The notes: generated by a model from the letters alone, not told the origin. Positions 1-20,000 are shown, counted from the first letter of the stretch. The stretch: 20,000 bases of DNA from an uncultured virus (IMG/VR IMGVR_UViG_3300012041_000021) (IMGVR_UViG_3300012041_000021), one strand, 5' to 3'. A program made the numbers and translations.

Positions 1-249
1 GAAGATTACACCGACTGTACTATAGAACAAAACATGGAAGATTTTCTGTATAATTTAGGACTCTATAATGACGCAAAAGACCGCGTTTTATTTGAGGGAG
101 AACATGGATTATATGATGATTGGTGTTTACAACTAGAAGATGGGACTCTTATAGAAAATGTAAAAAAGTTACATAAAATGACCATTGAAGATTTAACCTT
201 CCATGAGTTAACATTAACTGAATCAGCAATTAAACAATTAGGAATTTAA
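1..249 (+). CDS. Hypothetical phage protein, probably 5'-truncated by the window edge
   Basis: The frame of ORF 34..249 is open back to base 1 (EDYTDCTIEQN-M...). Stop TAA at 247-249; next ATG at 252. Confidence 0.65.
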   Translation, partial: EDYTDCTIEQNMEDFLYNLGLYNDAKDRVLFEGEHGLYDDWCLQLEDGTLIENVKKLHKMTIEDLTFHELTLTESAIKQLGI

Positions 250-251
250 AG

Positions 252-584
252 ATGAAAAAGACAGAAGTAAAAACAAATTTCCTTCACAGGTACATATTAC
301 CGAGAAGAGAATATACTGTTAGAGCATTGACGGACAATAGAGACGAGTTTGCAATAGAGGAAGTTTATTATATTTTAAGTATGGCTATTTGGCACACGTT
401 CCACATAGAGGATGAGAAGTTGGGAAAACCTTTCAATACTTTTTTTCAGGCGTTAAGAGAGAGTGAGGAATTGGAAGCTGTGGAAAAAGCAAAAGTACTT
501 GATAGAGAAATCAAATTCATTTGGGTTTGTGTGGGGTTTTTAATGACAATTGCCGGATGGAGTTTAATTGAATATGTTTTATAA
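252..584 (+). CDS. Hypothetical protein with a C-terminal transmembrane helix
   Basis: 110 aa with a hydrophobic C-terminus (FIWVCVGFLMTIAGWSLI). Tightly packed between neighbours. Confidence 0.7.
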   Translation: MKKTEVKTNFLHRYILPRREYTVRALTDNRDEFAIEEVYYILSMAIWHTFHIEDEKLGKPFNTFFQALRESEELEAVEKAKVLDREIKFIWVCVGFLMTIAGWSLIEYVL

Positions 585-586
585 GT

Positions 587-952
587 ATGGAAGAAAGATT
601 AGTAGGTTATGATGTAGCTAAAGCAGCTAAATGGAAATTTATTGAATTTAACACACGACACGGATTTAATGAACCAACTAAAGAAGCGTTTGATGGGGGT
701 AACGTATCAAATTGGAGTTTACTTAGGAAGTTTATTTCAAGACCAACACAATCTGTTGTTCAGGCGTACTTAAGAGATAACCATAATCTAAAAGTTTATG
801 TTGTCCCTCACTACGATAATGAGCACTACAACAGTTACATATTAAACAAAGAGGTAAGCTACAATAAAGAGCATTACGACCTATCATTTAAAACCTATGA
901 AGACGCATTAGAAGCAGGATTAGAAGAAGCATTAAATTTAATAGAAAATTAA
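587..952 (+). CDS. Conserved-looking phage hypothetical protein
   Basis: 121 aa. PTQSxxQxxLR..HN and TYEDALEAGLEEAL resemble, from memory, a family common in Bacteroidota phages. Confidence 0.75.
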   Translation: MEERLVGYDVAKAAKWKFIEFNTRHGFNEPTKEAFDGGNVSNWSLLRKFISRPTQSVVQAYLRDNHNLKVYVVPHYDNEHYNSYILNKEVSYNKEHYDLSFKTYEDALEAGLEEALNLIEN

Positions 953-962
953 AGCGGAGAGC

Positions 963-1661
963 ATGAAAGTAGAGTTAGTAGCAAAAACAGTAGGAGTAGG
1001 TAAATATGAAAACCTATCTTCAGAAGAAATTGTGTCGGCAATTGCACGACATGGAGTTGTAAAAGAAGACAACGGTAAATTAGTTAAATACTTAATGTCT
1101 AACGCTCATTGGAGTCCTTTAGACATGATTAACTTCGTAGTTGAAGTAGAAACAAGTAGAGCAATTGGGAGACAGATTTTGCGCCACGCAAGTATTAAAT
1201 TTCAAGAGCATAGTCAAAGATATTCTGATAGAGTTCAGTTTGAACCAATTGAGTTTAGGATGGAACACCCGACAAACAGACAGAGTAGTACAGACATCAT
1301 CGGTACTTTAGAAATCAAAGAGAAGTCTTTCAGTACAGATGTTTTAGATGGATTTGAAGAACATCAAGATTTTTTAGAAGAAATTGGTTACTATTTAAAA
1401 AATGTTCAAAAACTTTACAAAGAAGGTTTAGAAAAAGGGATTGCAAAAGAGTGTATGAGAAGCATACTTCCTGAATGTACTACATCAACGTTATCAGCTA
1501 ATGGTACATTACGTTCTTGGTTAAGTTTCTTAAATGTTCGTTGTGACCATCATGCTCAAAAAGAGTGTCAAGACCTTGCTACTCTAATCGGAGAAGCTTT
1601 AGAAAAAGAAATGCCTAATGTGTTTTCTACTATTGAATGGAGAACCGGAATGTTCATGTAA
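963..1661 (+). CDS. thyX: FAD-dependent thymidylate synthase ThyX
   Basis: HWSPLDM, SRAIGRQILRHASIKFQEHSQRY (ThyX RHxxxSxxxxSxRY signature), GIAKECMRSILP, NGTLRSWLSFLNVR and HAQKE are all ThyX-typical. Confidence 0.95.
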   Translation: MKVELVAKTVGVGKYENLSSEEIVSAIARHGVVKEDNGKLVKYLMSNAHWSPLDMINFVVEVETSRAIGRQILRHASIKFQEHSQRYSDRVQFEPIEFRMEHPTNRQSSTDIIGTLEIKEKSFSTDVLDGFEEHQDFLEEIGYYLKNVQKLYKEGLEKGIAKECMRSILPECTTSTLSANGTLRSWLSFLNVRCDHHAQKECQDLATLIGEALEKEMPNVFSTIEWRTGMFM

Positions 1662-1665
1662 GCGT

Positions 1666-1974
1666 ATGGAAGTAATAGAAGTTATTAAGGAGTTAGCTAG
1701 AAGAGGTATATCCACTTCAGTATGGTATGACGATGATGTGAGGGAGTTAATATATTTTGATTTAAACACCGGGGCTAAAAGTAATCTTTATCTTTTTGAA
1801 GATGGTGTTATAAAAGGAAGGTATGGATATGAAAGCGTCATTGACTTAGGAGAAGATTTAGAAGACATTATACACTCACTTTGTTACGAGTTTAAACGCT
1901 CACTACATGGAAGAGATTATGGTAACGGAGATTGGTTTCAATTGTGTAAAACATTAAAAATAAAAACAAGTTAA
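1666..1974 (+). CDS. Hypothetical protein (start revised from 1618 to 1666)
   Basis: ATG at 1666 lies 4 nt after the thyX stop and avoids a 44-nt overlap. 102 aa, MEVIEVIKEL... Confidence 0.75.
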   Translation: MEVIEVIKELARRGISTSVWYDDDVRELIYFDLNTGAKSNLYLFEDGVIKGRYGYESVIDLGEDLEDIIHSLCYEFKRSLHGRDYGNGDWFQLCKTLKIKTS

Positions 1975-1975
1975 C

Positions 1976-2314
1976 ATGAAATTTTATAAAGTAGTAGAAA
2001 ATATAGAAGCAAAACACTTCAAGATAAATAAAGGAGATATTATATGCAACAGTTTTTATTTTGGGTGGGTTAAGTGCGCCACAAATAAAACAAAAACAGC
2101 CCATTTATGGAGTTATTTTTTTAACCCGTTAGAATGTTTAGAGGCAGGACTATTAAAACCGCTAGATAAATGGGATTTAGTAAAGCTTACACCTCATTTA
2201 AAGAAAGAAATGTTAAAGTTTGACTATCCATTCAGTTTAAAAAATGACGAGTTTAAAACTTTAGAAGAAATTAAAAACATTAAAGATAGGGTTAAAAAAT
2301 ATAAAAATAGATAA
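1976..2314 (+). CDS. Hypothetical protein
   Basis: 112-aa Lys-rich ORF starting 1 nt after the upstream stop. Confidence 0.7.
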   Translation: MKFYKVVENIEAKHFKINKGDIICNSFYFGWVKCATNKTKTAHLWSYFFNPLECLEAGLLKPLDKWDLVKLTPHLKKEMLKFDYPFSLKNDEFKTLEEIKNIKDRVKKYKNR

Positions 2315-2315
2315 T

Positions 2316-2477
2316 ATGGACAGTCAACAGAGATTTTACATGGATGACAGTTTCGGTACAGAGCCGGAAGTTATTTTAACAGCAAACATAGAAAATATTT
2401 TAGAGCAGTATAGATTACTCTCCATCGAAGAGAAGGTTATATGTTGCCGAGTAATAATTAACGAAAAGATTTTTTAA
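2316..2477 (+). CDS. Small hypothetical protein (53 aa, not in ORF track)
   Basis: Manual translation MDSQQRFYMDDSFGTEPEVILTANIENILEQYRLLSIEEKVICCRVIINEKIF. Starts 1 nt after the upstream stop and ends just before a promoter. Confidence 0.6.
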   Translation: MDSQQRFYMDDSFGTEPEVILTANIENILEQYRLLSIEEKVICCRVIINEKIF

Positions 2478-2483
2478 ATTTTT

Positions 2484-2515
2484 CTTGCCGGATTAAAAAT
2501 TAATTAGTACATTTA
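2484..2515 (+). promoter_or_regulatory. Bacteroidota sigma-A-type promoter (near consensus)
   Basis: CTTG (2484-2487), N20, TACATTTA (2508-2515; one mismatch to TAnnTTTG). Intergenic, upstream of 2533. Confidence 0.65.
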
Positions 2516-2532
2516 CAAAAAATAAAGAAAAC

Positions 2533-2811
2533 ATGAACAGAAAACAATTATTAGAAAGCTCTATAACAGAGCAAAAAAATGTAGATACAGTAATCGCTAT
2601 CACATTAAAGAAAGATGCTAAAACTATTAACAAGGCTAAGAGAGACTTGGAAGACCAACTTGAAGAAGCTGAAGAAGCTTTGGAAGAAAGATTATCTTCT
2701 GACGTACCTTTAGATAAGTCCGTAGTTGAAGTGACTTATTCTAAGATTAAAGATTTGAAAGCTTCTCTAGCTCTTTACAAAGAGTTTGAAAAGGAGTTTT
2801 TAGGAGAGTAA
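2533..2811 (+). CDS. Small coiled-coil protein, apparently monocistronic
   Basis: 92 aa, heptad-like (KAKRDLEDQLEEAEEALEERL). Has its own promoter upstream and a hairpin downstream. Confidence 0.8.
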   Translation: MNRKQLLESSITEQKNVDTVIAITLKKDAKTINKAKRDLEDQLEEAEEALEERLSSDVPLDKSVVEVTYSKIKDLKASLALYKEFEKEFLGE

Positions 2812-2821
2812 TTAACTAATC

Positions 2822-2844
2822 GGGGTGTAAAAACCCCTCTTTTC
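2822..2844 (+). terminator. Putative weak intrinsic terminator
   Basis: GGGGT-gtaaaa-ACCCC stem-loop followed by TCTTTTC. Confidence 0.5.
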
Positions 2845-2852
2845 ACTACACT

Positions 2853-4211
2853 ATGAAAACAATACATTTTGTTACCCCGACTTTACTTTCCTACATAGAT
2901 TTAATGTCTATGGGCGGTTCAGAAAAAGCAGACGACGATACAAAGATTGGGACTTACTGTTCAGGTTTGAAGTTCTCTATGGCTCTAGCTCACAGAAACA
3001 ATGTTAAAATAGGTATTACGGTCTACGACACTGAAGACATCTTTGAAGATGTGGAAGGTATGAACAGAGATAGAAAAACTGAATACACTGTTGGAACATA
3101 TACAGAAAGATGTGGACAGACCGGAAAAGAAAAAGAGCTGTTACAATTAACTAAAACTGTTTCAGACCCACGTTTCTTTTCACTTAATTCAGTTGAACCT
3201 ATCTCTCAAGAAATTATCCCTACCGGATTCTCTACCAAGTTAGGTATTGATTGGTCTTTGTGGATGCTTTTAAGAGAAATCTATAGTAACATGGTCGATG
3301 AAGGAGGGGAATATCACGAAATCAGTTGTCCGATTGTTAATTATGGAACAGTTGTTTCTCTTAGTTTTGAAGAGGGTAGCGAGTTTGATGAAATTTGGAA
3401 TAATCGTCATCTTTACATTAATGAGGAAGAGCCTTTGTACGTCATCTCTCCTTCAGTGGATGTTTTAGCGAATGAGGAAGGATATCTTAGAATCTATAAA
3501 CAGAACATTCTAGTTTATGAAGATAAAGAAATTCCAAGTAGATTTGCTTACAATGTAAGGTTCGGGAGTATAGATGAGAAAAGGATTTTATCTGACGCTT
3601 ATTGTGTAGAAGGAGATATAGTTAATGCTATTAAGAACACTAAGAATGAGGAGTATCTTAGAGAAATCATAGATTCAACTTTTCATTGTGCAGAGAAAGA
3701 GTTTCTTTCAAGTAGAAGTACTTACGGGTCTGCTTCCGATTTAATTCATGACATAGCTTGTGAAATCTATGAAGAGTGCGGAGAAGTTAAATCTTATAGT
3801 TGGGTTATCAACTTGATTAAGGAAAGAGAAGATTGTAAAATTGCCGGAAAGAAACTTAAGTCAGTTGGGGATAGTATTTGGGCTTACAGTACTACTGTTG
3901 AAGTACAAAGTGCTCCTGAAACTTTCTCTACACCGGAAGTGATTGAAACAGAAGAAGAAGTTTTTGAAGATTCTTTTGTCGCGGAAATTAGAAAACACTA
4001 TAACTTTGATTTAGATGTTGAAGTTAAAATGGCTAAATTGAAAGGAAGTAAAGTTATTGCAGACAAGTACTGTAAATGCTTAATCATTGACGATTCTTTT
4101 GATTTACAGGAAGACTTCCCCGAATTTATTGTGCAGTATTTAGACTTAACTAGACAAGGTAACGTAGTTGAGAATTTATCTGTTTTTATTTGTGAACTTT
4201 TAAAAAAATAA
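2853..4211 (+). CDS. GHKL (HATPase_c/Hsp90-like) ATPase-like protein with permuted motif order
   Basis: MGGSEK..DTKIGTYCSGLK (G2/ATP-lid-like, aa 20-40), LREIYSNMVDE (N-box ExxxNxxD, aa 140-150) and GTVVSL (G3-like, aa 165-170). Acidic C-terminal region. Confidence 0.6.
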   Translation: MKTIHFVTPTLLSYIDLMSMGGSEKADDDTKIGTYCSGLKFSMALAHRNNVKIGITVYDTEDIFEDVEGMNRDRKTEYTVGTYTERCGQTGKEKELLQLTKTVSDPRFFSLNSVEPISQEIIPTGFSTKLGIDWSLWMLLREIYSNMVDEGGEYHEISCPIVNYGTVVSLSFEEGSEFDEIWNNRHLYINEEEPLYVISPSVDVLANEEGYLRIYKQNILVYEDKEIPSRFAYNVRFGSIDEKRILSDAYCVEGDIVNAIKNTKNEEYLREIIDSTFHCAEKEFLSSRSTYGSASDLIHDIACEIYEECGEVKSYSWVINLIKEREDCKIAGKKLKSVGDSIWAYSTTVEVQSAPETFSTPEVIETEEEVFEDSFVAEIRKHYNFDLDVEVKMAKLKGSKVIADKYCKCLIIDDSFDLQEDFPEFIVQYLDLTRQGNVVENLSVFICELLKK

Positions 4212-4903: not shown

Positions 4904-5262
4904 TGGTCATAATAGATAAGATAGTAATGTCTGAAGAAGACAAGGAGAAAATAAAGATTGGTAATTGGTATGTTTCAAAAAAAGGGATACGTACTGCGGA
5001 GAACTCATTTCCGCAAGGAACAAAGTTCAGGATATCCGCATTCAGGGAACAACATAATCCGGCTTTATTTACATACTCTTATGTGCATAGAGCTCATGTA
5101 AGAAATGAGTTGATAATAGAAATGTATTGTCCAATTGGAGAGCTACACACTTCATATCACTCAGAAAGATTCTTTGAAGAATTTGAAGAATTGTCTTATA
5201 AGATAAAAAGATTTTCTCTTTTCGGTTATATTGTCGATATTTACAAATACAAAATATGCTAA
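4903..5262 (+). CDS. Hypothetical protein
   Basis: 119-aa ORF overlap-coupled to the next gene. The start could be the internal Met at 4927. Confidence 0.7.
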   Translation: MVIIDKIVMSEEDKEKIKIGNWYVSKKGIRTAENSFPQGTKFRISAFREQHNPALFTYSYVHRAHVRNELIIEMYCPIGELHTSYHSERFFEEFEELSYKIKRFSLFGYIVDIYKYKIC

Positions 5263-5475: not shown

Positions 5476-5829
5476 ATGAGCAATTACCAAGATTTAGAGC
5501 AAAAAGTATTAGAGTGGGCAGATGATAAAGGTATCCTAGAGAAAGCCACTCCCTTAGCTCAAGCTAAGAAAACAGTGGAAGAAGTTAATGAACTTTTAGA
5601 AGCTACGGAAGCACAAGCAAACGGGTTAGTAGAGTTTGTAAATAGTAAGGGTAAACTAGTTAATACTGAAGTGGAATGTAAAGATGCTTTAGGAGATATC
5701 TTAGTAACTATTATTATTGGTGCTGAATTACAAGGCTTGCAGTTAGAAGATTGCCTAGAAGCTGCTTATAATATCATCTCTAAACGTACAGGGAAGATGG
5801 TTGACGGACAGTTTGTAAAAGATAAATAA
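5476..5829 (+). CDS. MazG-like all-alpha NTP pyrophosphohydrolase
   Basis: QAKKTVEEVNELLEA...KDALGDILVT (EExxE...DxxGD metal motif), plus C-terminal AYNIISKRTGKMVDGQFVK typical of phage MazG-like proteins. Confidence 0.9.
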   Translation: MSNYQDLEQKVLEWADDKGILEKATPLAQAKKTVEEVNELLEATEAQANGLVEFVNSKGKLVNTEVECKDALGDILVTIIIGAELQGLQLEDCLEAAYNIISKRTGKMVDGQFVKDK

Positions 5830-6811: not shown

Positions 6812-7417
6812 ATGAGCTATATTAACGTAGAAATTTTAAAAAGTTTTAACCTTAGTCTCGTAGATTTAGGAGTCCTTCAACTTATCAAGCAGAACCGGAC
6901 TGAAAATATGTCCATGTCTTTACAATATCTTTTAGAAGACACTACAGATTTAGTTCGATATGAAGAAGAAAAACTTGTAGAATATGTAAACCCTAAGAAG
7001 AAGAGCGATAGTGTCTACAAATGCGTTAGAATAACTAAGAAGGGCAGTGATATACTAGACAGCATTGCCACTCCTGAAATTACACTTGGAGATGCTCAAA
7101 TGTTGGACTATCTTATCAATATGTACTTAGCACATGAAGATAAAGAACGAGTAGTTGGAAACAAGAAGAAGGTCGCTATGTACATCGCTATAATGCGTGG
7201 CAAATTGAACCTTACTCTCCATCAGTTCTTTTATCTGTGCGAGCTCTTTTTATCGGAACAAAAGTTTACCAAAAAATTAGAGAATATCTTCTTCGATTCT
7301 AATAAGAATAGATATGGAGATTTTAAAAATAATATGGAAGACAGCCCACTGTATCAATTCTACGATAGTAGGAAACTTGAAGTAGAACAATATTGGCAAC
7401 AAAAAATTAAAGAATAA
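6812..7417 (+). CDS. Hypothetical protein, possible replication initiator or helicase loader (winged-helix-like N-terminus)
   Basis: 201 aa directly abutting the helicase. The N-terminal half ends in VRITKKGSDIL, reminiscent of a wHTH wing (LTxKG). The function is inferred from position. Confidence 0.5.
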   Translation: MSYINVEILKSFNLSLVDLGVLQLIKQNRTENMSMSLQYLLEDTTDLVRYEEEKLVEYVNPKKKSDSVYKCVRITKKGSDILDSIATPEITLGDAQMLDYLINMYLAHEDKERVVGNKKKVAMYIAIMRGKLNLTLHQFFYLCELFLSEQKFTKKLENIFFDSNKNRYGDFKNNMEDSPLYQFYDSRKLEVEQYWQQKIKE

Positions 7418-8509
7418 ATGTTAAAAACAGGAAGAGAACTTACAAATGAAACAGTTGAAACAATTAGGAAATTCCAATCAGGAGTATTAAAACCTATTGC
7501 TACCGGAGTTACACACTTAGATGATGCCTTGATGTCCGGCTTGACTCCGGGCATCGTTGTAGGTATTGTTGGTCGAAGTGGTCACGGTAAGAGTTATGAT
7601 ATGGAGCGTATTCAACGGAATATCTTAAAAACACATGACGATGTTCTGTACGTTAACTGTAATTGGGAGCTCTCACATTTTAAATTACTTTTGAGGGACA
7701 TTTCTCAACGTACCGGAGATAATATAGGAAAGATTTTGTTTGAAATGCCCACAGATGCAAAGAGCGAAGAACTTGACCGGATTTTTGAAGATAATAGGAC
7801 AGAGAATGTACTGTATCAAAATGAACCTGTAACTCCTGACGTTTTCTCTCAAGACATAGAAGGTGTTATAAAAGCTAATCCTTTGAAAAAGATAGTAGTT
7901 GCAATTGACAACCTTGAAAATATCCTTATTTCTAAAGGCTCTCAAAAAGAATCTATGGACGCATTGTTGTATCAGGTTAACAGATTGAAAAATCTACATC
8001 CTTACATCTGTTTCATAGTTTTAAATCAAATGAATCAGAACTATCTTTTGAGAATGGACAATCCTAAGAATCAGCGTCCTATTGACAGTGATATTTACGG
8101 TTCTGACCAACTTTACAAGTTATGTGACGTATTGTATGTTAAACTGATTCCTTGGAAACTAGGTATCCATGAGAAATTTATGGTGTTTGGAAAGGACATG
8201 TATTCTTGGTTAGACGAACATAAATTAGTGGCGGGTAATACTGCAAGTTTTGACCCTTACGGTAAGGCTTTCTATTTTTATTTGAAAATGAGAGCAGTTA
8301 GGGATGACAAGAATGTTCAGGACATTCACATAGAAAAGTTATTTACTAGAGAGGGGTCAAATGCTCCTCAAAGACAGAATAATGTTACACCAACTTTCTC
8401 TCAAGTTCCGGTATTTGAATCTGCTCCGTTACCTACAGTGTCTTTAAATGACGCTTTTGGAACGAGCTTTCAGAATAAGGTAGAGGAGGGAGACACCAAT
8501 CCATTTTAA
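7418..8509 (+). CDS. DnaB-like (SF4) replicative helicase
   Basis: IATG..HLD, Walker A GRSGHGKS, Walker B VAIDNL, H3 LNQMN and H4 RPIDSDIYGSDQLYKLCD. No fused primase domain. Confidence 0.9.
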   Translation: MLKTGRELTNETVETIRKFQSGVLKPIATGVTHLDDALMSGLTPGIVVGIVGRSGHGKSYDMERIQRNILKTHDDVLYVNCNWELSHFKLLLRDISQRTGDNIGKILFEMPTDAKSEELDRIFEDNRTENVLYQNEPVTPDVFSQDIEGVIKANPLKKIVVAIDNLENILISKGSQKESMDALLYQVNRLKNLHPYICFIVLNQMNQNYLLRMDNPKNQRPIDSDIYGSDQLYKLCDVLYVKLIPWKLGIHEKFMVFGKDMYSWLDEHKLVAGNTASFDPYGKAFYFYLKMRAVRDDKNVQDIHIEKLFTREGSNAPQRQNNVTPTFSQVPVFESAPLPTVSLNDAFGTSFQNKVEEGDTNPF

Positions 8510-8812: not shown

Positions 8813-9031
8813 CTACATAGTGTACTGATTAGGGTCAACGCCTTTTTCTAAAAAGTAAGCTTGAAGCATCCAATACGCTTTTGCCATGTATTTCACATGT
8901 TCATCATCGTCTTTATCCTCTTCATACTCCTCTTCAGCGCAGTCCAAAGTCTTGTGAATTTGTTTGACAACCAAGTACTCACTGTGCTCCATAGGGAATT
9001 TTCTGAAAAACTCCGTAAAATGCATAGCCAT
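8813..9031 (-). CDS. Small acidic helical protein, second gene of the antisense cassette
   Basis: 72 aa with an acidic tract EEEYEEDKDDDEH. Starts 6 nt after the stop of the upstream minus-strand gene and ends at a terminator. Confidence 0.75.
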   Translation of the reverse strand: MAMHFTEFFRKFPMEHSEYLVVKQIHKTLDCAEEEYEEDKDDDEHVKYMAKAYWMLQAYFLEKGVDPNQYTM

Positions 9032-9037
9032 GATTCG

Positions 9038-9736
9038 TTAACTCTTTACATTCACAGGGTTAGCTGTTTGTGCAACTCCCGCCATAAGACCTCCTACATT
9101 GATGATGTCTTGACCTGCTTTAGCTACTTGGCTAAATACTGTGTCAAATCTTCTAATGTGGTCGAAGTCTCTTTGAGATTGAACTTGCGCTTGAGCTTGT
9201 AACTGTGCTTGTAATTGTGCATTACTGTTTGAGATAGCAATGTTGATGTCTTGACTGTCACCTCTTCTGTGAGAATGTGCCAATTGGTCACGTAATGCGT
9301 CGATTTCTGTCTGATTTATCTTGGCAAGTATCGCCGCGGTTTGGGCAGTTCCTGCTGACGCGATGTCGTCTAGGCGTTTATCGGTCAAAGCCGCGATTGC
9401 TTGCGCCTGTGCCGAAAGCTGCGCCGTATTTCGCTCGGCTTGAATTGCTTGGGCATAGAAGGAATTCATGTTTTGCTTTTCAGCTTCACATATGGCTGTG
9501 GCAATTCCCCTAGCTTCACTGACTGAAGTATCTTTGGCATTTCCAATAGCGGCGAGCAATACTGCCTGACCGTTGCAATCAGTGTCTTTTTTATGACCTG
9601 TAATGTCGCCAATTCCTAATAATCCTAAAAGTCCGAAAGGTGCGATACCTCCAAAACCTCCACCGAAGCCGCCTCCAAGACCTCCACTAAAACCTCCACC
9701 TAAAGCATTGTACTCGCTCGAATTTGTTAAACTCAT
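9038..9736 (-). CDS. Gly-rich hydrophobic N-terminus plus Ala/Gln-rich coiled-coil protein of unknown function (start revised from 9823 to 9736)
   Basis: 232 aa from MSLTNSSEY, with GGGFSGGLGGGFGGGFGGIAPFGLLGLLGIG followed by heptads. The upstream extension is AT-rich and contains a minus-strand -7 box. Confidence 0.85.
   Translation of the reverse strand: MSLTNSSEYNALGGGFSGGLGGGFGGGFGGIAPFGLLGLLGIGDITGHKKDTDCNGQAVLLAAIGNAKDTSVSEARGIATAICEAEKQNMNSFYAQAIQAERNTAQLSAQAQAIAALTDKRLDDIASAGTAQTAAILAKINQTEIDALRDQLAHSHRRGDSQDINIAISNSNAQLQAQLQAQAQVQSQRDFDHIRRFDTVFSQVAKAGQDIINVGGLMAGVAQTANPVNVKS
9647..9700 (-). repeat. Imperfect 12-bp-period tandem repeat encoding (G/S)GG(F/L) units
   Basis: + strand ACCTCCAAAACCTCCACCGAAGCCGCCTCCAAGACCTCCACTAAAACCTCCACC encodes GGGF-SGGL-GGGF-GGGF-GG. 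Confidence 0.6.
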
Positions 9737-9786
9737 GTTGTTTTTAAATTTAAAAATTAATAAATAGTTGTTGAAATATTTCGGGA

Positions 9787-9794
9787 CAAATTTA
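9787..9794 (-). promoter_or_regulatory. Minus-strand -7 box driving the antisense cassette
   Basis: CAAATTTA on + reads TAAATTTG on -, 50 nt upstream of ATG 9736. No good -33 TTTG at 20-nt spacing (TACG). Confidence 0.6.
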
Positions 9795-9826
9795 CGACAA
9801 TTATCTAAGTATCTCGTAATCATATA

Positions 9827-9894: not shown

Positions 9895-10152
9895 ATGAGA
9901 AAAGATTTTGATGAAATCGACGTGAAGGAGGTAAAAAGACTGACTAAAGGGGAGTTGGAGAGAGTGGGTAAAAATTTAAAAGGGTTGAGAGTTAAAAACG
10001 GTTTGACTTTAAATGACATTAGTTTCTACACTTACAGTAATATTTCAACTGTAGAGAAATTAGAAGTTTCTAAGTTAGAGAATGTGACCTTATTAACTCT
10101 TATGAAGCTTTCGGTTTTTTATAGTATTCCCCTCAAAGATTTGTTTTTATGA
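9895..10152 (+). CDS. XRE/Cro-C1-family helix-turn-helix regulator
   Basis: VGKNLKGLRVKNGLTLNDIS....NISTVEKLE....NVTLLTLMKLSVFYSIPLKDLF matches the XRE HTH pattern. Confidence 0.88.
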   Translation: MRKDFDEIDVKEVKRLTKGELERVGKNLKGLRVKNGLTLNDISFYTYSNISTVEKLEVSKLENVTLLTLMKLSVFYSIPLKDLFL

Positions 10153-10157
10153 AATTT

Positions 10158-10190
10158 TCCTCCTCATTTATTTGCAGGAGGATTTTTTTT
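10158..10190 (+). terminator. Intrinsic terminator after the HTH gene, overlapping the next promoter
   Basis: TCCTCCT (10158-64), 11-nt loop, AGGAGGA (10176-82), then T8. Confidence 0.8.
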
Positions 10191-10202
10191 GTTATATATT
10201 TG
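10171..10202 (+). promoter_or_regulatory. Bacteroidota sigma-A-type promoter (perfect consensus)
   Basis: TTTG (10171-74), N20, TATATTTG (10195-10202). Confidence 0.8.
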
Positions 10203-10226
10203 CTGAAGAAATAAAAACTAAAAGAT

Positions 10227-10865
10227 ATGCCAAAAATAAAAACAGTTAAATTAAATTTTAATAGTATCGGATTAACGGATTATAGTTATTCTACTTTTAA
10301 AGGTCAATTACAGTATACTTTGTACTATGATGCTAAAGACGACTTTTTCTATTTTGATTGGAAAGAGATAAATAAAGACTTTGAAAATATAAATTATAAT
10401 CAAATATCTCAGTCAAGGTTCGGTCAATGTAGAACATATAGGAAAGCTTTAGAGTTATTAATGTTTACGATAGTTGAAGATAAAACTCTTGAAAAATATA
10501 TAGAGATTAAAATTACTGTAAACAAAACGGAAAAGTCTAATAAAGACACTGATATAATTTCAGTTGGGTCGAATTGGAAAGGTATTAATTTAGAGTTTAA
10601 AAGAATTTTCTTAGTGAGATGCGGGAACTTAATTGGTGTTCAGAATTGTCATAAAGATACTTGGATTGTAGAAAGTGACCCATATTTCACAAACGGTAAA
10701 CCAAAAAATCTAATACCGTACACAAATGAGACTTGGGATTTTTTAACAAATGTAGATAATAATATTAAAGCTTTAGGAGATTTAATTTACAACTTCTTTG
10801 ATGGTGATGTAGAACTGTTGGAAGATAAAATTAAAACTAGTGGTCAAATTTTATTAAATAAATAA
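10227..10865 (+). CDS. Hypothetical protein
   Basis: 212-aa ORF, first gene after a promoter. No motif recognised. Confidence 0.8.
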   Translation: MPKIKTVKLNFNSIGLTDYSYSTFKGQLQYTLYYDAKDDFFYFDWKEINKDFENINYNQISQSRFGQCRTYRKALELLMFTIVEDKTLEKYIEIKITVNKTEKSNKDTDIISVGSNWKGINLEFKRIFLVRCGNLIGVQNCHKDTWIVESDPYFTNGKPKNLIPYTNETWDFLTNVDNNIKALGDLIYNFFDGDVELLEDKIKTSGQILLNK

Positions 10866-13159: not shown

Positions 13160-15556
13160 ATGAATGACGCTTACATTATAGATATAGAGAGTTCAAATTT
13201 ATTGGCAAACATGTTAGATTATAGTAGCTTGCCTTACAAGTTAAATAGGGAAGCTAATCTGTGGTGTATTGTTATTAGAAATGTCGGGACTAACGAGGTT
13301 AAATATGCTGTTGAAGGGCAGATTACTAAAGAGTGGATGAAAGAGGCTCTAAAGGGCTGTAAATACTTAATAGGGCACAATGTATTGAAGTTTGACTTCT
13401 TGGTTTCTAAGCTTTTCGGTGTTTTAGATTATTCTGTTGGTTATTTAGATGAACCGGACACTTTGTTCGGAGAACCTGTAACTTTGATTGATACTTTAAT
13501 CCTTTCCCGGCTTTTTAATCCTGACAGACATGGCGGACATTCGCTTGAAAGTTGGGGACACCGGACAGGTACAAAATTAAAAACAGAGTTCCGAAAAATT
13601 TGTATTGAAAAAGGTTACATAACTAAAGACGAACCTAAAGGTGCAGAGTTCAGAAAGTACGTCCCGGAAATGTTAGATTACTGTATTGATGATACAGAAG
13701 TTAATAGGAATACCTTCTTAGCTCTAGTGGAAGAAAAAGGAGATTATAGCGGTTGGAATAAGGCTATTAAGATGGAGAATAAGTTAGCAGACTTAGCTAT
13801 CCGACGAGAAACTTTCGGTTTTTGGTTTGATAAGGATTCAGCTGTTAAGTGTGTTGAGGAGTTAACTGAACTTATGGAAGTACTTAGAAATAAAGTAAAT
13901 CCGGTTCTTCCTCCAAAGCCAATGACTAAAGGAGATTTGAATTCTTTTACTCCTCCGGCTACTCAATTTCTTAAAAGTGGGAAACCTTCTACTCACATTG
14001 TAAAGTTTGCGGCTAGAATGGGCGGGAGAATTGTGACAGATGATGAGAAGTATTACATAGAATTTGAAGGAAATAATTACGAGTTACCATTTAACCTTCC
14101 GTTAAAAACACATACAGAAGCGGACATCAGTAATCTTGACCACGTTAAGATGACTTTAACAGATGTTTACGATTGGATACCTACAGAATGGGCGGTCAGA
14201 GATTTTACTAAAGATAGTAAGAAACAAAGTTTAACTTATGAAAAAAGAGTTATAGCTTTTGAAAGATGGTTGAAGGAGACTCAACAAGGAAAATACACTG
14301 ACCTTAGACTTGACATAGCTTTTAAAGACCACAAAGTAAAATCTGTGGAAGATTTGGAGAGAAAGATTAAAGAGAAGTTACATGAAGATTACCCGGTAAA
14401 GTTGCCAACTTCTCCAAAAGTAAGAGTAGGTATTGAAAAGGATTTATGTCCGAACTTAACAGCTCTTGGAGATAAAGTAGAGTTTGCTAAAGACTTCGCT
14501 TTATTCTTAACTTATAAGCACAGAAAGTCATCCATTGCCGGAGGAGAGTTGGAAGATGTTGATTATGATGATGAATACCCAACTTCCGGTTTTCTTTCCA
14601 TGTATAGAGAAGAGGATTCGCGTATCCCTACTCCGGCTATTGAGATTGGAGCGTCTTCATGTAGATATAGGCACATTGGAGTGGCTAACGTTCCAAGAGG
14701 TACTTCTGTTTATGGTAAAGAGATGCGAAGTTTATTTGGGTCGGGTAAAGATGGAGTACAGTTAGGTTTTGACTTTGCCTCTTTAGAAGCTAGGATTCAG
14801 GGACACTATTGTTGGAAGTACACTGATGGAGAGGAATTAGCTAAAACATTACTTGCTGAAAAGCCTAACGATATTCACACATTAACAGGATTGAAATTAG
14901 GTATTCCTAGAAGTGATGCAAAGTCTGTGAACTACATGCTTATCTATGGCGGGAAGATTCCTAAAGTAGAAGCTATGTTAGGTGTAGATAAGCCAAGAGC
15001 TACAGAAATTTTTGAAGGGTTTTGGGATTCAGTCCCTTCTTTGAAAGAGTTGAAGGTAGCGGTCACTGAACATTGGAAAGCTAATGATAAGGTATGGATT
15101 GCCGGAATAGATGGTAGAAAGATTACTACTAGAAGTGAGCACAGTTTATTGAACGCTGCTTTTCAGTCAGCCGGAGTTATCGCTGCTAAGTATGTTACGG
15201 TTCTAATGATGCAGTATTTAGAGAAAGCGGGTTACAATTTAGACCCCTTTATAGCTGCTCCTGATGTATGTAGCATGATTGAATATCACGATGAATGTCA
15301 GCTTTTCTTGTCGAAAACTATACCTAAGTTTGAACTGTTTCCTTCTGAAGAAGAAGCTAAAGCGTTTATTAAGGGTTGGACAGGAGAAGGACAGTTAAGT
15401 GCTATTTCGGAAGGTAAGTCTTGGTATGTAGCTTTACCTAATGTTGTTTCTCTTGCAGTGGCAAAAGCTATTAAAGATACGGAAGTTATATTGAAATTGA
15501 ATGTTGAATTAGGTTACGAATGGATTGTTAGTAACACTTGGTACGGATGCCATTAA
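13160..15556 (+). CDS. polA: Family A DNA polymerase with a 3'-5' exonuclease domain (T7-like, no 5'-3' exonuclease)
   Basis: ExoI DIESS, ExoII GHNVLKFD, ExoIII YCIDD. Motif A DFASLEARI, motif B RSDAKSVNYMLIYG, motif C YHDE. C-terminal W...H. Confidence 0.95.
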   Translation: MNDAYIIDIESSNLLANMLDYSSLPYKLNREANLWCIVIRNVGTNEVKYAVEGQITKEWMKEALKGCKYLIGHNVLKFDFLVSKLFGVLDYSVGYLDEPDTLFGEPVTLIDTLILSRLFNPDRHGGHSLESWGHRTGTKLKTEFRKICIEKGYITKDEPKGAEFRKYVPEMLDYCIDDTEVNRNTFLALVEEKGDYSGWNKAIKMENKLADLAIRRETFGFWFDKDSAVKCVEELTELMEVLRNKVNPVLPPKPMTKGDLNSFTPPATQFLKSGKPSTHIVKFAARMGGRIVTDDEKYYIEFEGNNYELPFNLPLKTHTEADISNLDHVKMTLTDVYDWIPTEWAVRDFTKDSKKQSLTYEKRVIAFERWLKETQQGKYTDLRLDIAFKDHKVKSVEDLERKIKEKLHEDYPVKLPTSPKVRVGIEKDLCPNLTALGDKVEFAKDFALFLTYKHRKSSIAGGELEDVDYDDEYPTSGFLSMYREEDSRIPTPAIEIGASSCRYRHIGVANVPRGTSVYGKEMRSLFGSGKDGVQLGFDFASLEARIQGHYCWKYTDGEELAKTLLAEKPNDIHTLTGLKLGIPRSDAKSVNYMLIYGGKIPKVEAMLGVDKPRATEIFEGFWDSVPSLKELKVAVTEHWKANDKVWIAGIDGRKITTRSEHSLLNAAFQSAGVIAAKYVTVLMMQYLEKAGYNLDPFIAAPDVCSMIEYHDECQLFLSKTIPKFELFPSEEEAKAFIKGWTGEGQLSAISEGKSWYVALPNVVSLAVAKAIKDTEVILKLNVELGYEWIVSNTWYGCH

Positions 15557-15645: not shown

Positions 15646-16257
15646 ATGAAAGTAAAAATATTAACAAGTTTTCCTAAGAAGACTTTTGAAGTGGATGAAG
15701 TTTGGTTCAGTGCCGACTTACACTTAGACCACGAATCTGTTATTAAACATGGACGTAAGTTTGACAGTGTAGTGGAAATGAACGACACTATCATTCATGA
15801 AATTAACAAAGTAGTTAGAGAGAATGATTTACTAGTTCTTTTGGGAGATACTTTGATGGGAGAGAAAGATTATGAAAGTTTCTTGAACTCTTTGAGATGT
15901 AAGTATGTTATCATGTTGTATGGTAATCATTGTAATATTGGTAAACTTCAATCAATTTGGTTAGAGAATACTAAGCTGCTTTATCAAGGGTATTATTTGG
16001 AACTTAATGTTGAAGGTCAAATTATTTGCTGTTCTCACTTTCCCCAATTTAATTGGAATTATCAGGACGATGGTAGTTGGAGTTTACATGGTCATTTACA
16101 TTCAGATGAGAATCCGGTTTTAAGAGAGATTCACAAATATAAGTCTATGGATGTGGGAATTGATAATTATTACAAAATGATGGGAGAATATGGTTTATTT
16201 TCCTTTAATCATGTGAAGCTTTTATTAAGAGATAATTTAATTATGAAAAGACATTAA
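15646..16257 (+). CDS. Calcineurin-like metallophosphoesterase
   Basis: SADLHLDH, LLGD, YGNH, SHFP, HGHLH and DVGID motifs. Confidence 0.92.
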   Translation: MKVKILTSFPKKTFEVDEVWFSADLHLDHESVIKHGRKFDSVVEMNDTIIHEINKVVRENDLLVLLGDTLMGEKDYESFLNSLRCKYVIMLYGNHCNIGKLQSIWLENTKLLYQGYYLELNVEGQIICCSHFPQFNWNYQDDGSWSLHGHLHSDENPVLREIHKYKSMDVGIDNYYKMMGEYGLFSFNHVKLLLRDNLIMKRH

Positions 16258-16261
16258 AACA

Positions 16262-16326: not shown

Positions 16327-16701
16327 ATGGAAAAACTATTAACAAAGAAACAAGTCACAGACGAGGTTACTGCATTCATTAAAGCTTACCGGAAGAGAGA
16401 CGAATATGAATGTATGTGGCTTATTGACGATTTACAGATAGGCGACGAGTACTTTTTTGTAGAGGTAATACGAACACCTACAAGATTTAAAGACAAGATG
16501 TGTCAAGTTACAGGAGAGTGGTCTGAAATAAAAGTTGAAGAGGGTAAATTTAAATTAGAGATGTCTATATTTAAAGGAGAAGATGATGAAAATCCTGAAA
16601 ATCACAACCCTTCAATAAATATAGAAGGTAACACGACAACTGAAATTGCAGATTTCCTAGCTTTCGAGTATCACAGACGAATTTTAAAACGAGTTAAATA
16701 A
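16327..16701 (+). CDS. Hypothetical protein (start revised from TTG 16291 to ATG 16327)
   Basis: The TTG at 16291 is part of the -7 box, so it cannot be in the transcript. 124 aa from MEKLLTKK. Confidence 0.75.
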   Translation: MEKLLTKKQVTDEVTAFIKAYRKRDEYECMWLIDDLQIGDEYFFVEVIRTPTRFKDKMCQVTGEWSEIKVEEGKFKLEMSIFKGEDDENPENHNPSINIEGNTTTEIADFLAFEYHRRILKRVK

Positions 16702-16707
16702 AACAAC

Positions 16708-17010
16708 ATGAAATTAAAAAACAAAGTATCAGTAAATCTTGATTGGGATGGAGATACAGCTTCTTTAACAGAAGAAAGAGTAGAAAAATTAATTGACGGG
16801 GGATTGGTAGACTTTACTTTAGAGGTAGAAGTAGAAGAGAAAACATATCGTAGTGGTTCACATGATTTACCGGACGATGTGGAGGTTGTTGTATCGCATA
16901 TCGCAATATCAGATGTTAGAGTTTTTGACCGAGATGATGAAGAAGTTTTCTTGTCAGATATTGAAGTTTATGAAATGGGAGAACATATTCGTGAATCAAT
17001 TATATTCTAG
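16708..17010 (+). CDS. Highly acidic hypothetical protein
   Basis: 100 aa, about 27 D/E versus 10 K/R. Confidence 0.8.
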   Translation: MKLKNKVSVNLDWDGDTASLTEERVEKLIDGGLVDFTLEVEVEEKTYRSGSHDLPDDVEVVVSHIAISDVRVFDRDDEEVFLSDIEVYEMGEHIRESIIF

Positions 17011-17012
17011 TT

Positions 17013-17261
17013 ATGAGTAAGTTAGATAGATTGTTAGATTATTATGGGGAGGAATCTCTTCTGATAGCCGATGGTTTTGACGAAGCTATTATAGGAGTTG
17101 AAGAAAATTCTATGCGAGTTATTTACTCAGTTTCTAAGTGTATAGATATTCTTGGCGAAGATATGCCGATAGACGAAGCTTTAGAGTATTTCTATTATAA
17201 TGTGAGTGGGAGTTATATGGGTAAAAATACACCAATTTGGTGTGAAGATTTAATATTTTAA
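17013..17261 (+). CDS. Conserved aquatic-phage hypothetical protein
   Basis: ADGFDEAIIG...VIYSVSKCIDIL..DM..DEALEYFYYNVSGSYMGKNTP is a widespread phage family of unknown function (recognised from memory). Confidence 0.85.
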   Translation: MSKLDRLLDYYGEESLLIADGFDEAIIGVEENSMRVIYSVSKCIDILGEDMPIDEALEYFYYNVSGSYMGKNTPIWCEDLIF

Positions 17262-17263
17262 TT

Positions 17264-17443
17264 ATGAGTACATCTTGGGAAGGTGGGACATATGAGCCCA
17301 CATTAGTATTAGACGGTAAAATGGTAATAGTTGAGAATATAGGAGTGTACGATGGAAGTATCCCTACAACTTACAGAAGAGAAGTTATTCTTCACTTTGA
17401 CAGTGAGGATAAGGCGGCAGAATATTATTATAAAAAACGGTAA
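17264..17443 (+). CDS. Small hypothetical protein (59 aa, not in ORF track)
   Basis: MSTSWEGGTYEPTLVLDGKMVIVENIGVYDGSIPTTYRREVILHFDSEDKAAEYYYKKR. Fits exactly between its neighbours. Confidence 0.7.
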   Translation: MSTSWEGGTYEPTLVLDGKMVIVENIGVYDGSIPTTYRREVILHFDSEDKAAEYYYKKR

Positions 17444-17444
17444 A

Positions 17445-17705
17445 ATGGAAAGAATAGATAATGTTTATGAAGTCACTAGGAGACTTTTAGGAATAATTGA
17501 CCCTGCGGGGGACGCTTCTGTAGATGGTATTAGATTTGAGAATTTAGAACAGACTATTGACTTAACAGAAAGTTTAATGGCGGATATCATTTATGTAGCA
17601 AGACATAAAGGTCATTATGCTAATTCAATGAATATTGCAGGTGAAAGAGCAGATAAATTTATTAACGAGTTAAGAGAAATGATAATTGATGGAAAAGAAA
17701 GATAA
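17445..17705 (+). CDS. Hypothetical protein (start revised from 17352 to 17445)
   Basis: 86 aa from MERIDNVY; starts 1 nt after the stop at 17443. Confidence 0.75.
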   Translation: MERIDNVYEVTRRLLGIIDPAGDASVDGIRFENLEQTIDLTESLMADIIYVARHKGHYANSMNIAGERADKFINELREMIIDGKER

Positions 17706-17991
17706 GGTTATTTACGTATTAATGGGTTTGGTTTTTGTACTACTTTTGCTTCTCTTTTGGCGACAAGATACGTTTGAAAGCCGAGTAGACGAGTATAAGG
17801 GGAGTATAGACACTTTGAAACAAACAGAGAAAATATTACGAGAAAAAGTAGATTCTTTTAGCGTGAGGATTGATGGGACTAAAACTGTCATTAACAATAT
17901 TCACGTAGAAAAAGAAAAAGCAGTTACAAATGTTAAACAATTAAAAAATGACCAATTGCAAGGTTGGTTTACGAATAGATATGGAAAATAG
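17689..17991 (+). CDS. Membrane-anchored coiled-coil protein (i-spanin/Rz-like architecture)
   Basis: N-terminal TM helix VIYVLMGLVFVLLLLLFW, followed by a coiled-coil soluble domain. Confidence 0.6.
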   Translation: MEKKDKVIYVLMGLVFVLLLLLFWRQDTFESRVDEYKGSIDTLKQTEKILREKVDSFSVRIDGTKTVINNIHVEKEKAVTNVKQLKNDQLQGWFTNRYGK

Positions 17992-18349
17992 TTTAGAATT
18001 AAGACATATAGCTCCGTACCTTCCATATAAGTTGAGGTTTTTTACTGACTGTGAAGAGTACCGAATGGAGTTAGATGGTTTGTATGTTTGGGGCGATGCT
18101 TTCAATGAACAATATGGAGACATTCCTTTGCATAATATTAGACCAATTTTAAGACCATTAGAAGATTATAAACTGTTTGAAGATATTACAGACATGATGA
18201 TTAGAAGAGAGTTTGGTTTATTGGAGGACTATCCTGATTTAGTTTTAAGGTTGTCATATACGACCATTGAAAAAATGTTGGAGCACCATATTGACGTGTT
18301 CTCGTTAATCCCTCAAAACTTAGCTATTAATTTAAACACTATAGTATGA
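17981..18349 (+). CDS. Hypothetical protein (start revised from 17948 to 17981)
   Basis: 122 aa. LELRHIAPYLPYKL...IRPILRPL...HIDVFSLIPQNLAI resembles, from memory, a common Bacteroidota-phage family. Confidence 0.8.
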   Translation: MENSLELRHIAPYLPYKLRFFTDCEEYRMELDGLYVWGDAFNEQYGDIPLHNIRPILRPLEDYKLFEDITDMMIRREFGLLEDYPDLVLRLSYTTIEKMLEHHIDVFSLIPQNLAINLNTIV

Positions 18350-18717
18350 AAAAATTAATTATTATTTTTACCCTTTTCGCCGGAATTTCAATGTCGGCAC
18401 AGGAAACCACAACTAATGTTGTATTATCTTCCAAAGTTGCAAGGGAAGTTATTGTGGATTTGATAGAAGGAGATTTTTGCGAAAAAGAGTTGAAAGAAAC
18501 TAAGGTTCTAGTGAATCAGTTAGAAGAGAAAGTATCCCTACAAGGAGAAGTAATTTTGAATAAGGACTTACAGGAAGACTTGTGGAAGAAGATTAACGGA
18601 GAGCAGGAAGAAGCTCTGAAGAAACAGAAGAGAGCTAATCTAGGACACAAGATTCTTCTCTATGGTTCTATTGGAGTAAATATGTTATTAGTCACTAAAC
18701 TAATTCAGTTATGGTAG
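18346..18717 (+). CDS. Exported coiled-coil protein with a signal peptide and a C-terminal hydrophobic anchor
   Basis: MKKLIIIFTLFAGISMSA|QE (SPI-like, +1 Gln), a coiled coil, and C-terminal ILLYGSIGVNMLLV. Confidence 0.7.
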   Translation: MKKLIIIFTLFAGISMSAQETTTNVVLSSKVAREVIVDLIEGDFCEKELKETKVLVNQLEEKVSLQGEVILNKDLQEDLWKKINGEQEEALKKQKRANLGHKILLYGSIGVNMLLVTKLIQLW

Positions 18718-19013
18718 TAAGTTATGTAGCAATTGATAATCAGGATGGAAGTATTCAATTATCAGATTTATGCGATTATAAAGGAGACCCCTCTTTAAAT
18801 TTTAAAAACTGTCCTGACGGTTTTTGGGACAGTCGTAAGTACCTTAAAAAGATGTTCAAGCAACTTAGAAAGGGCGATAGACATAAAGGACTTTATAAGT
18901 TTTGTATGTTGAATAATCTTAATTATACAGAGACAGTTGTGGATTTATTAGAGATTTATGAAGAGTCTAAAAAATTAAAAATGTGGAAGAAGAAAAAGAA
19001 AAAAACTATTTAG
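18711..19013 (+). CDS. Hypothetical protein
   Basis: 100-aa ORF, overlap-coupled on both sides. Confidence 0.65.
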   Translation: MVVSYVAIDNQDGSIQLSDLCDYKGDPSLNFKNCPDGFWDSRKYLKKMFKQLRKGDRHKGLYKFCMLNNLNYTETVVDLLEIYEESKKLKMWKKKKKKTI

Positions 19014-19912
19014 ACACTATTGTTTTTCAATGGTACGACGCTGACATCAAGAAAATTGCTCCAAAAGGTGATATAACTCTTAGACAATTCATTAACTCTG
19101 TTAAATCTCCAAAAGAAGCTTTAAAAACCACATTTAATAAAATTGAACAAGCCTCTTTAGACAACGATATGACGTTAAAAGCAGAATTAAAAAAAGGTTT
19201 ATTTGCTGTAACTCCCTGTGTTAAGATTAAAAATATACGTAATTACGAAGGTATTCAAATGTTCAATGATGTTTTAGTTATTGAGTACGATAAAATACCT
19301 TATGCTGTTGAATTAAGAGATTATATTTTTGAAAAGTTTAACAGTTGTGTATTTGCTTTTTTATCACCAAGTAAAAGCGGTTGTAAGTTTATATTCAGAA
19401 TTAAACCTGTCTCTACTATTCTTGAATTCAAGGAATTATTTTGGGGATTAGCTTACGAATTAGATAAATTCATAAATTTAGATTGGTCAGGAGCTAATGC
19501 TGTATTACCTCTTTTCGTTAGTTGGGATGAAGAAGCTAAAGTTAGAGAAAATCCTAGTGAGTGGATTAAACGAGGATATAAAGAAGGAAGTTTTATCCCT
19601 TATGAAGGAGATTTTGAATCACCTGACGACATAAACGAAGAAGATAGGCAAGAAGTAATTGATAAAATAACATATTTATTTAACAAGATTGAGGATAACG
19701 GTCATCCTCAATGCGTTAAAATAAGCTGTCTGTTAGGAGGTTTCGTAGCAAGTGATTATATTTCTTATGATGAGGCTTATGAAGTACTAGAAGAGTTAAT
19801 AGAAAGTAATACTTATCTAAGTAAAGATATAAACAATTACAAAACAACAGCTAGAACAATGCTTACTCGCGGAATGACAAGTCCTATTTTATTAGAAAGA
19901 CATAAAAAATAA
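18983..19912 (+). CDS. VirE N-terminal / BT4734-like (AEP primase-polymerase superfamily) protein
   Basis: LKKGLFAVTP, VLVIEYDKI, AFLSPSKSGCKFIF and LDWSGAN...FVSWDEEA follow the VirE_N pattern (KxxLpxxTp, iDiD, FxSPSGxGlK, D......R..f.syDp). Helical C-terminal domain. Confidence 0.8.
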   Translation: MEEEKEKNYLDTIVFQWYDADIKKIAPKGDITLRQFINSVKSPKEALKTTFNKIEQASLDNDMTLKAELKKGLFAVTPCVKIKNIRNYEGIQMFNDVLVIEYDKIPYAVELRDYIFEKFNSCVFAFLSPSKSGCKFIFRIKPVSTILEFKELFWGLAYELDKFINLDWSGANAVLPLFVSWDEEAKVRENPSEWIKRGYKEGSFIPYEGDFESPDDINEEDRQEVIDKITYLFNKIEDNGHPQCVKISCLLGGFVASDYISYDEAYEVLEELIESNTYLSKDINNYKTTARTMLTRGMTSPILLERHKK

Positions 19913-19921
19913 TTTAATTAG

Positions 19922-19953
19922 TTTGGATATGTGGCTACATTGTTGTATCTTTG
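19922..19953 (+). promoter_or_regulatory. Bacteroidota sigma-A-type promoter (perfect consensus)
   Basis: TTTG (19922-25), N20, TATCTTTG (19946-53). Confidence 0.8.
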
Positions 19954-19978
19954 TGGGCTAATTATAAATCTATAAAAA

Positions 19979-20000
19979 ATGAAATCAGAATTATTACGAA
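19979..20000 (+). CDS. Start of the next gene (truncated by the window)
   Basis: ATG after an A-rich leader downstream of the promoter: MKSELLR... Confidence 0.5.

Follow-up and report, generated by a model that had tools for sequence, protein, structure and literature searches.

Complete absence of the asymmetric tetramer CCAG, together with GATC, GGCC and GGNCC, from a 20-kb window of an uncultured phage genome probably reflects restriction-site avoidance

A 20,000-nucleotide stretch of DNA from an uncultured virus (IMG/VR IMGVR_UViG_3300012041_000021), which we refer to in its entirety as the window, contains no copy of the asymmetric tetramer CCAG or of its complement CTGG. A first-pass annotation, made from the sequence alone, had reported this absence, anticipated dozens of sites, and proposed a Markov-corrected tetramer count as a check. 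Our count returns 0 CCAG/CTGG sites against 58.8 expected under an order-2 Markov model and 59.3 expected from base composition, so the absence holds under either null. All word counts cover the 20,000-base window only (A 7199, T 6048, G 4136, C 2617; G+C 33.8%). We consider restriction-site avoidance the probable explanation, in which sequence-specific DNA-cutting defenses of the host would have stripped the phage of the words that they recognize.

The two orientations are equally empty, with 0 CCAG against 22.7 expected and 0 CTGG against 36.1 expected on the + strand. Across 200 order-2 Markov simulations, the combined count ranged from 39 to 83 with a mean of 58.4, which gives the observed zero a Poisson P of ~3e-26. 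In 1000 synonymous-codon shuffles, which keep the protein sequences and the codon usage, the combined count was 59.6±6.4 and never fell below 41. Neighboring words are abundant, as had also been claimed (CCAA 43, CCAT 27, CCAC 23, CTGA 57, CTGT 63 and CTGC 22). The purge is wider than the EcoRII/Dcm-type word CCWGG, itself 0 against 9.1 expected, because all eight flanking classes of CCAG are empty. On the 3' side, CCAGA is 0 against 27.7, CCAGC 0 against 10.3, CCAGG 0 against 10.3 and CCAGT 0 against 20.1; on the 5' side, ACCAG is 0 against 20.7, CCCAG 0 against 11.8, GCCAG 0 against 7.7 and TCCAG 0 against 28.4. Avoidance of CCWGG, which is also absent from most of the clade-B relatives described below, is therefore insufficient on its own, since CCAGA, CCAGC and CCAGT are missing from the window as well.

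The window carries about 45 open reading frames (ORFs), all on the + strand except those at 8813-9031 and 9038-9823. We examined codon choice as a function of the neighboring codon over 6269 codon pairs (hyphens mark codon boundaries hereafter), and the word is avoided in all three reading frames:

NCT before a Gly codon (GGN): 0/42, against 448/913 (49%) elsewhere
Pro codon CCA before a G-starting codon: 0/40, against 30/113 elsewhere
Leu codon CTG before a G-starting codon: 0/198, against 18/409 elsewhere
NCC before AGN: 0/41
C-ending codon before the Trp codon TGG: 0/93, against 801/6176 elsewhere
C-ending codon before CAG: 0/60, against 12/113 before CAA

Removal by synonymous codon choice, which the annotation had proposed, is thus directly visible at NCT-GGN, CCA-G, NNC-TGG and NNC-CAG. 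At the last two kinds of site, conversion to CCGG would turn Trp or Gln into Arg, and it is the upstream codon that has changed instead. Selection therefore acts against the word itself, and mutation bias is not the sole cause, because NNC-TGG and NNC-CAG are empty even though CCGG would alter the protein there.

CCGG is in excess. It occurs 38 times between 553 and 18383, within the range of 35 to 40 that had been estimated, and the individual sites named earlier each proved to be one base off (they lie at 1645, 3121, 3933, 7503, 13454 and 15102). The size of the excess depends on the null, since 28.2 sites are expected under the Markov model and 14.6 from base composition. All but one of the 38 sites are in ORFs, where a free codon shuffle produces 13.6±3.1 with a maximum of 23, and these 37 fall into 17 NCC-GGN, 14 CCG-GNN and 6 NNC-CGG frames. 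NCC stands before GGN in 17/42 cases (8.8% elsewhere) and CCG before G in 14/40 (14% elsewhere), and both codons are over-used even among the synonyms that remain allowed (binomial P of 3e-4 and 0.014, respectively). A single gene of the window is conserved enough to compare with relatives site by site:

13160..15556, + strand: family A DNA polymerase (PF00476; phrog_17), with 12 CCGG sites

At conserved Pro-Asp/Glu/Val/Ala and Ala-Gly pairs of this polymerase, the window has CCG-G and GCC-GG where relatives have CCT-G, CCA-G, GCT-GG and GCA-GG, and the CTGG of relatives is most often replaced by TTGG. The earlier view of CCGG as a compensatory escape product is right in kind, given this enrichment at NCC-GGN, at CCG-G and at the polymerase sites. 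A shuffle that forbids CCAG, CTGG, GATC and GGCC gives 19.6±3.3 CCGG sites (maximum 29 in 280 samples) against the 37 observed, and the excess that remains fits single-transition escapes (CTGG>CCGG and CCAG>CCGG) that are still short of equilibrium. We rejected the idea that the NNC-CGG sites are Gln- or Trp-to-Arg escapes on the basis of the two such sites that lie in the polymerase: Arg stands at 13507 in 22/22 aligned relatives, and at 13561 the relatives have Arg in 16/19 and Lys in 3/19.

Other words had been purged unnoticed. GATC is 0 against 46.2 expected and GGCC 0 against 9.4, and GGACC/GGTCC (GGWCC) is 0 against about 11. Two further words are reduced, namely CTCAG/CTGAG (5 against 19-25 expected) and TCGA (13 against 25.7 under the Markov model or 47 under the codon shuffle). 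The five CTCAG/CTGAG survivors lie at 5160, 10408, 11944, 12878 and 17126, and four of them share one orientation, CTCAG on the + strand. Low counts were also seen for GGTGA (5 against 27.4 in the synonymous shuffle of the + strand ORFs, z of -5.7) and for GTGA, TGAG and TGAT; the GGTGA depletion may be codon-pair bias rather than the mark of a defense target.

The imprint of these words reaches the proteins, since any Gly-Pro dipeptide spells GGNCC and any Pro-Gly dipeptide spells CCNGG. Over the 45 ORFs, 8.2 Gly-Pro and 8.2 Pro-Gly dipeptides are expected; the former is missing and the latter is present once:

7547..7552, + strand: the sole Pro-Gly dipeptide of the 45 ORFs, written CCG-GGC

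Two related loci behave in the same way, one (L011) with no Gly-Pro and no Pro-Gly against 13.8 expected and the other (L014) with neither against 11.8, and the effect is milder in Cellulophaga phage phi4:1 (L038), which has 6 of each against 14.9. Because both dipeptides are nearly absent from the window and from related loci, site avoidance extends to the amino-acid level across the phage group. The joint absence of GATC, GGCC, GGWCC and Gly-Pro is the usual picture of avoidance of several restriction enzymes.

To place these words in an evolutionary context, we drew on 35 distinct related loci; L016 and L017 are copies of L001 and L004. The related phages, which the annotation had suggested checking, mostly purge CCGG and keep CCAG, and some have lost CCAG in part. 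Among the 12 loci in which at least 5 CCGG sites are expected, nine lack the word, two have a single copy and L018 has 8. No locus among the 35 has lost all CCAG, and most are near expectation (82 against 84 in L019; 134 against 127 in L011). Partial loss is found in L002 (4 against 26), L003 (3 against 22), L020 (1 against 7), L023 (4 against 16), L027 (4 against 18), L008 (11 against 37), L010 (11 against 35) and L012 (4 against 18). We rejected a restriction of this loss to the polymerase gene, as outside that gene L008 has 5 against 26 and L010 has 8 against 25. Flanking classes differ as well: L002 has no CCAGA (12 expected) and no CCAGC (4.1 expected) yet keeps CCAGG and CCAGT, L008 keeps CCAGT (8 against 10.6), and most clade-B loci lack CCWGG altogether. 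In the polymerase tree, the window groups with L020, L002/L003, L004, L019 and L001/L015 with full support. CCAG-containing targets thus recur in the phage group. The purge set is lineage-specific rather than a trait of family composition, and this matches host-imposed pressure, because the sets differ between close relatives.

The annotation had called the selection long-term, and this part of its claim is doubtful. The data are instead in keeping with an ancestor that avoided CCGG and a rather recent switch away from it, because CCGG exceeds even the shuffle that forbids the purged words, and because Pro-Gly is still nearly absent (1 against 8.2) although CCGG now makes it encodable. Tolerance of CCGG would accordingly be a derived state in the lineage of the window, since Pro-Gly could not be encoded while CCGG, CCAG and CTGG were all banned, and the window is all but devoid of it.

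We propose the following account. The window would come from a virulent-type double-stranded DNA phage of a freshwater-sediment bacterium, probably one of the Flavobacteriia, whose host defenses would target three classic words (GATC, GGCC and GGNCC) along with the asymmetric CCAG. A codon that formed a target word together with the start of the codon after it would have been swapped for a synonym, so that removal would be almost wholly synonymous; GGNCC offers no such synonym, and Gly-Pro would have been lost from the proteins. Relatives in the lineage would avoid CCGG, and many of them CCWGG, and the phage of the window would have dropped the CCGG constraint. CCGG lies one transition away from CCAG (A>G) and likewise from CTGG (T>C), which would make it the main sink and would explain its excess. 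The CCAG enzyme would need a single site in either orientation and would be orthodox Type II-like (IIS/IIA) rather than canonical Type III, because both orientations of CCAG are gone and loss of one is enough to defeat a Type III enzyme. Elimination of both orientations is consistent with an orthodox Type II asymmetric target without being exclusive to that class.

A host defense is suggested because GATC, GGCC and GGNCC were purged along with CCAG, because the purge sets of relatives differ, and because CCAG methylases have been published. Of the host-defense claim in the first-pass annotation, the selection on the word and the synonymous escape are borne out by the counts; the defense as agent is a step beyond them. 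We infer that a restriction enzyme is the agent, and likewise its class, the identity of the host and the order of events.

Published systems support parts of this account. A survey of non-temperate double-stranded DNA phages (Rusinov et al. 2018, PMC6286503) describes genomes that, like the window, have several words fully purged and their proteins kept. GATC and GGCC, both purged here, are typical orthodox Type II targets. Compared with the phages of that survey, the main word of the window is an asymmetric tetramer that is gone in both orientations. As reported in PMC6286503 and PMC4687349, avoidance in phages and their hosts is essentially confined to orthodox Type II sites, including asymmetric ones. 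In hosts, the depletion of asymmetric sites is weak (threshold 0.926; PMC4687349), which gives samples of 20 kb little power to reveal it. A plain 4-bp CCAG specificity exists, as the methyltransferase hp0944 of H. pylori A45 was confirmed by knockout to be CCAG specific (PMC10689673); this bacterium belongs to a different phylum. The same report detected CCAG methylation in Thermacetogenium phaeum (PMC10689673), and for Sporosarcina P32a, Table 2 of PMC5930826 classes the motif as Type II ("unique: no"). The motifs of PMC9296519 (CCAGCG) and PMC8565308 (CCWGG) are neither of them plain CCAG. The nearest viral likeness is halovirus Hardycor1 of Halorubrum coriense, in which CCAG has an odds ratio of 0.11, non-palindromic tetramers are avoided and palindromes are absent, and whose authors attribute the avoidance to host restriction-modification systems (PMC7911831). 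Unlike the window, Hardycor1 is an archaeal virus of 67.8% G+C in which CCAG is reduced rather than absent; its other purged words are AGCT, CTAG, TGCA, CAGC and CATC, and PMC7911831 reports no CCGG compensation.

The window is a very clean fresh case of a known phenomenon, phage restriction-site avoidance, with three less common features: an asymmetric 4-bp target, a set of banned words that has switched relative to its kin, and an imprint at the dipeptide level. Loss of CCAG in both orientations predicts a CCAG restriction specificity, and for this word we know only of methylases. The purge profile of CCAG, GATC, GGCC and GGNCC could be paired with the methylomes of co-occurring bacteria and so name the host. 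The near-absence of Gly-Pro and Pro-Gly in the phage and its relatives indicates that defense pressure goes past silent sites. The contrast with the CCGG-banning relatives, together with CCGG above equilibrium, may be a datable trace of changed host defenses. A wider extrapolation, which we offer only tentatively, is that a potent uncharacterized CCAG restriction activity exists in freshwater Flavobacteriia, and perhaps in other bacteria of aquatic habitats, and that it acts on either orientation and exerts a strong and common pressure; the lineage would then record a switch of taboo from CCGG to CCAG, with purges that reached the proteins until Gly-Pro and Pro-Gly were almost banned group-wide.

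Several results weigh against restriction-site avoidance by a single Type II-like CCAG enzyme. Passive displacement by the forbidden words accounts for only ~6 of the roughly 23 extra CCGG sites. The model also leaves unexplained why 6/10 Arg CGG codons follow a C-ending codon (background 13%, P ~6e-4). We know of no characterized restriction endonuclease that cuts at CCAG. Avoidance of asymmetric and of Type III sites is called uncommon in the phage survey (PMC6286503). Finally, the clade-B loci L008, L010, L012, L023, L024 and L027 have lost CCAG more on the polymerase-sense strand (1 against 14.4 and 10 against 22.3 on the two strands of L008; 0 against 5.5 and 4 against 10.4 in L023). The counts behind this are low and come from loci that are themselves related; the skew looks Type III-like, and the class of enzyme may therefore differ.

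This skew, in which L008 and L023 lose one orientation more than the other, bears on the strongest alternative, a Type III enzyme that recognizes CCAG, translocates along the DNA, and cuts between two sites in inverse orientation. Type III enzymes with asymmetric sites of four bases are known, as MmyCI recognizes TGAG (PMC3498834), and H. pylori A45, with its CCAG methylase, has both Type II and Type III systems, to either of which the CCAG enzyme may belong (PMC10689673). The window nevertheless argues against such an enzyme. Escape from a Type III enzyme requires that just one orientation be removed (PMC6286503), and here both are at zero, which is also where the likeness to TGAG ends. The same survey finds Type III sites very rarely avoided and no systematic strand-asymmetric avoidance (PMC6286503). 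We regard a Type III enzyme as unlikely for the window. Escape through one orientation is the known outcome for phage T7 facing EcoP15I.

A second alternative replaces the single CCAG enzyme with several systems whose longer or degenerate sites contain CCAG (CCWGG, CCAGA-type and others) and which purge the word jointly. The partial patterns in relatives are of the kind that this would produce, with CCWGG at 0 in clade B and some CCAGN words spared in L002 and L008. In the window, none of the eight flanking classes (four 3' and four 5') is occupied, at expectations of 7.7 to 28.4, and joint coverage would need at least three or four specificities, so that one 4-bp site is simpler and the joint action of several enzymes improbable.

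Mutation bias could also link the missing word with the abundant one. A host very-short-patch-type repair tied to CCGG methylation would resolve T:G mismatches in CTGG/CCAG to CCGG and would account at once for the depletion and for the CCGG excess, even the part that passive displacement leaves over; an analogous bias in E. coli from CTAG towards CCAG is discussed in PMC4687349. However, the word is absent also where CCGG would alter the protein, with the upstream codon changed at NNC-TGG and NNC-CAG, and TTGG is the commonest substitute for the CTGG of relatives in the polymerase. Such a bias does not push ~59 sites to exactly zero, and the absence of GATC and GGCC lies beyond its reach. As the whole explanation it is very improbable, although it may contribute to the CCGG excess.

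Least probable of all is the alternative once raised in the annotation, a phage-encoded CCAG nuclease that destroys host DNA and spares a genome lacking the site: it would explain a total, orientation-independent absence, and there is room for it in that only 20 kb of the phage genome is covered, 26/45 ORFs lack a PHROG match (E ≤ 0.001) and a further 11 hit only families without a known function, but no nuclease or methylase family appears among the 45 ORFs (PHROGs) or the 17 (Pfam) scanned, the purge of GATC, GGCC and GGNCC would be left unexplained, and the purge sets of relatives shift as they would under host-imposed pressure. We know of no precedent for an unmodified phage that spares itself from its own site-specific nuclease through absence of the site. 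Phosphorothioate (Dnd/Ssp) systems have the motifs GATC, GGCC and CCA. We set aside targeting through such motifs, as CCA itself is common in the window (93 copies).

A host among the Flavobacteriia, as proposed above, is suggested by the gene content of the window. The 45 ORFs were annotated with PHROGs, and 17 of these also with Pfam, which identified the following genes in addition to the polymerase:

963..1661, + strand: ThyX thymidylate synthase, phage nucleotide metabolism (PF02511, E of 7e-37; phrog_85)
5476..5829, + strand: MazG-like pyrophosphatase (phrog_715, E of 1e-29; PF03819 and PF01503 matches weak)
6812..7417, + strand: 201-aa protein of unknown function (phrog_32643)
7418..8509, + strand: DnaB-like helicase (PF03796, E of 4.7e-08; phrog_37407)
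15646..16257, + strand: phosphoesterase (phrog_547, E of 7e-36)
18983..19912, + strand: VirE-N / BT4734-like N-domain protein (PF08800)

On these protein matches, the window is the replication module of a relative of Flavobacterium and Cellulophaga phages. The VirE-N protein matches 20 phage records, 12 of them from Flavobacterium phages and 8 from Cellulophaga phages, and the 201-aa ORF matches 7, every one from a Cellulophaga phage (44% identity). The host probably belongs to the Flavobacteriia, because the phages that match these two proteins infect Flavobacterium or Cellulophaga. The polymerase has 50-55% identity to polymerases of Edwardsiella, Acinetobacter and Cellulophaga phages and 66-75% to those of uncultured contigs in IMG/VR and a metagenome collection, the best match being 75% at the amino-acid level. 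The polymerase search of these two collections returned no identical contig, the window itself found no match by megablast among 50,697 phage records, a scan of genome contigs yielded no relative of the window, and a ThyX look-up gave no clue to the host.

The sequencing runs that hold the window sequence are labeled freshwater sediment or groundwater metagenome. Contigs from four additional runs (X2-X5) agree with it to at least 99% and cover 30, 29, 28 and 28 of 30 bins, respectively; because of these matches, the window sequence is not an artifact of a single assembly. Among the differences listed across runs, one is recurrent, 6986 G>A (X2, X3 and X5), and two more (1628 and 1630) lie near a contig end, which leaves too few variants to judge whether purged words are being created.

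In Cellulophaga phage phi4:1 (L038, 9255-16012), the phosphoesterase gp018 is followed by the DNA methylase gp019, and a C5 methyltransferase, gp028, lies nearby. Unlike phi4:1, the window has no methylase gene after its phosphoesterase or at the matching places, and the two phages may rely on different anti-restriction strategies.

The ORFs within 8813-9823 are the only two of the window on the minus strand. The 261-aa one, which has no Pfam or PHROG family match, is Gly-rich in its N-terminal part and contains repeats rich in Gln and Ala. The spacer at 10152-10227 holds a GC-rich hairpin (CCTCCTC...GAGGAGG) followed by T8, a terminator-like arrangement. Contigs of runs X2, X3 and X4 depart from the window sequence at positions 10165 and 10211, and an alternative version of this spacer is therefore in circulation.

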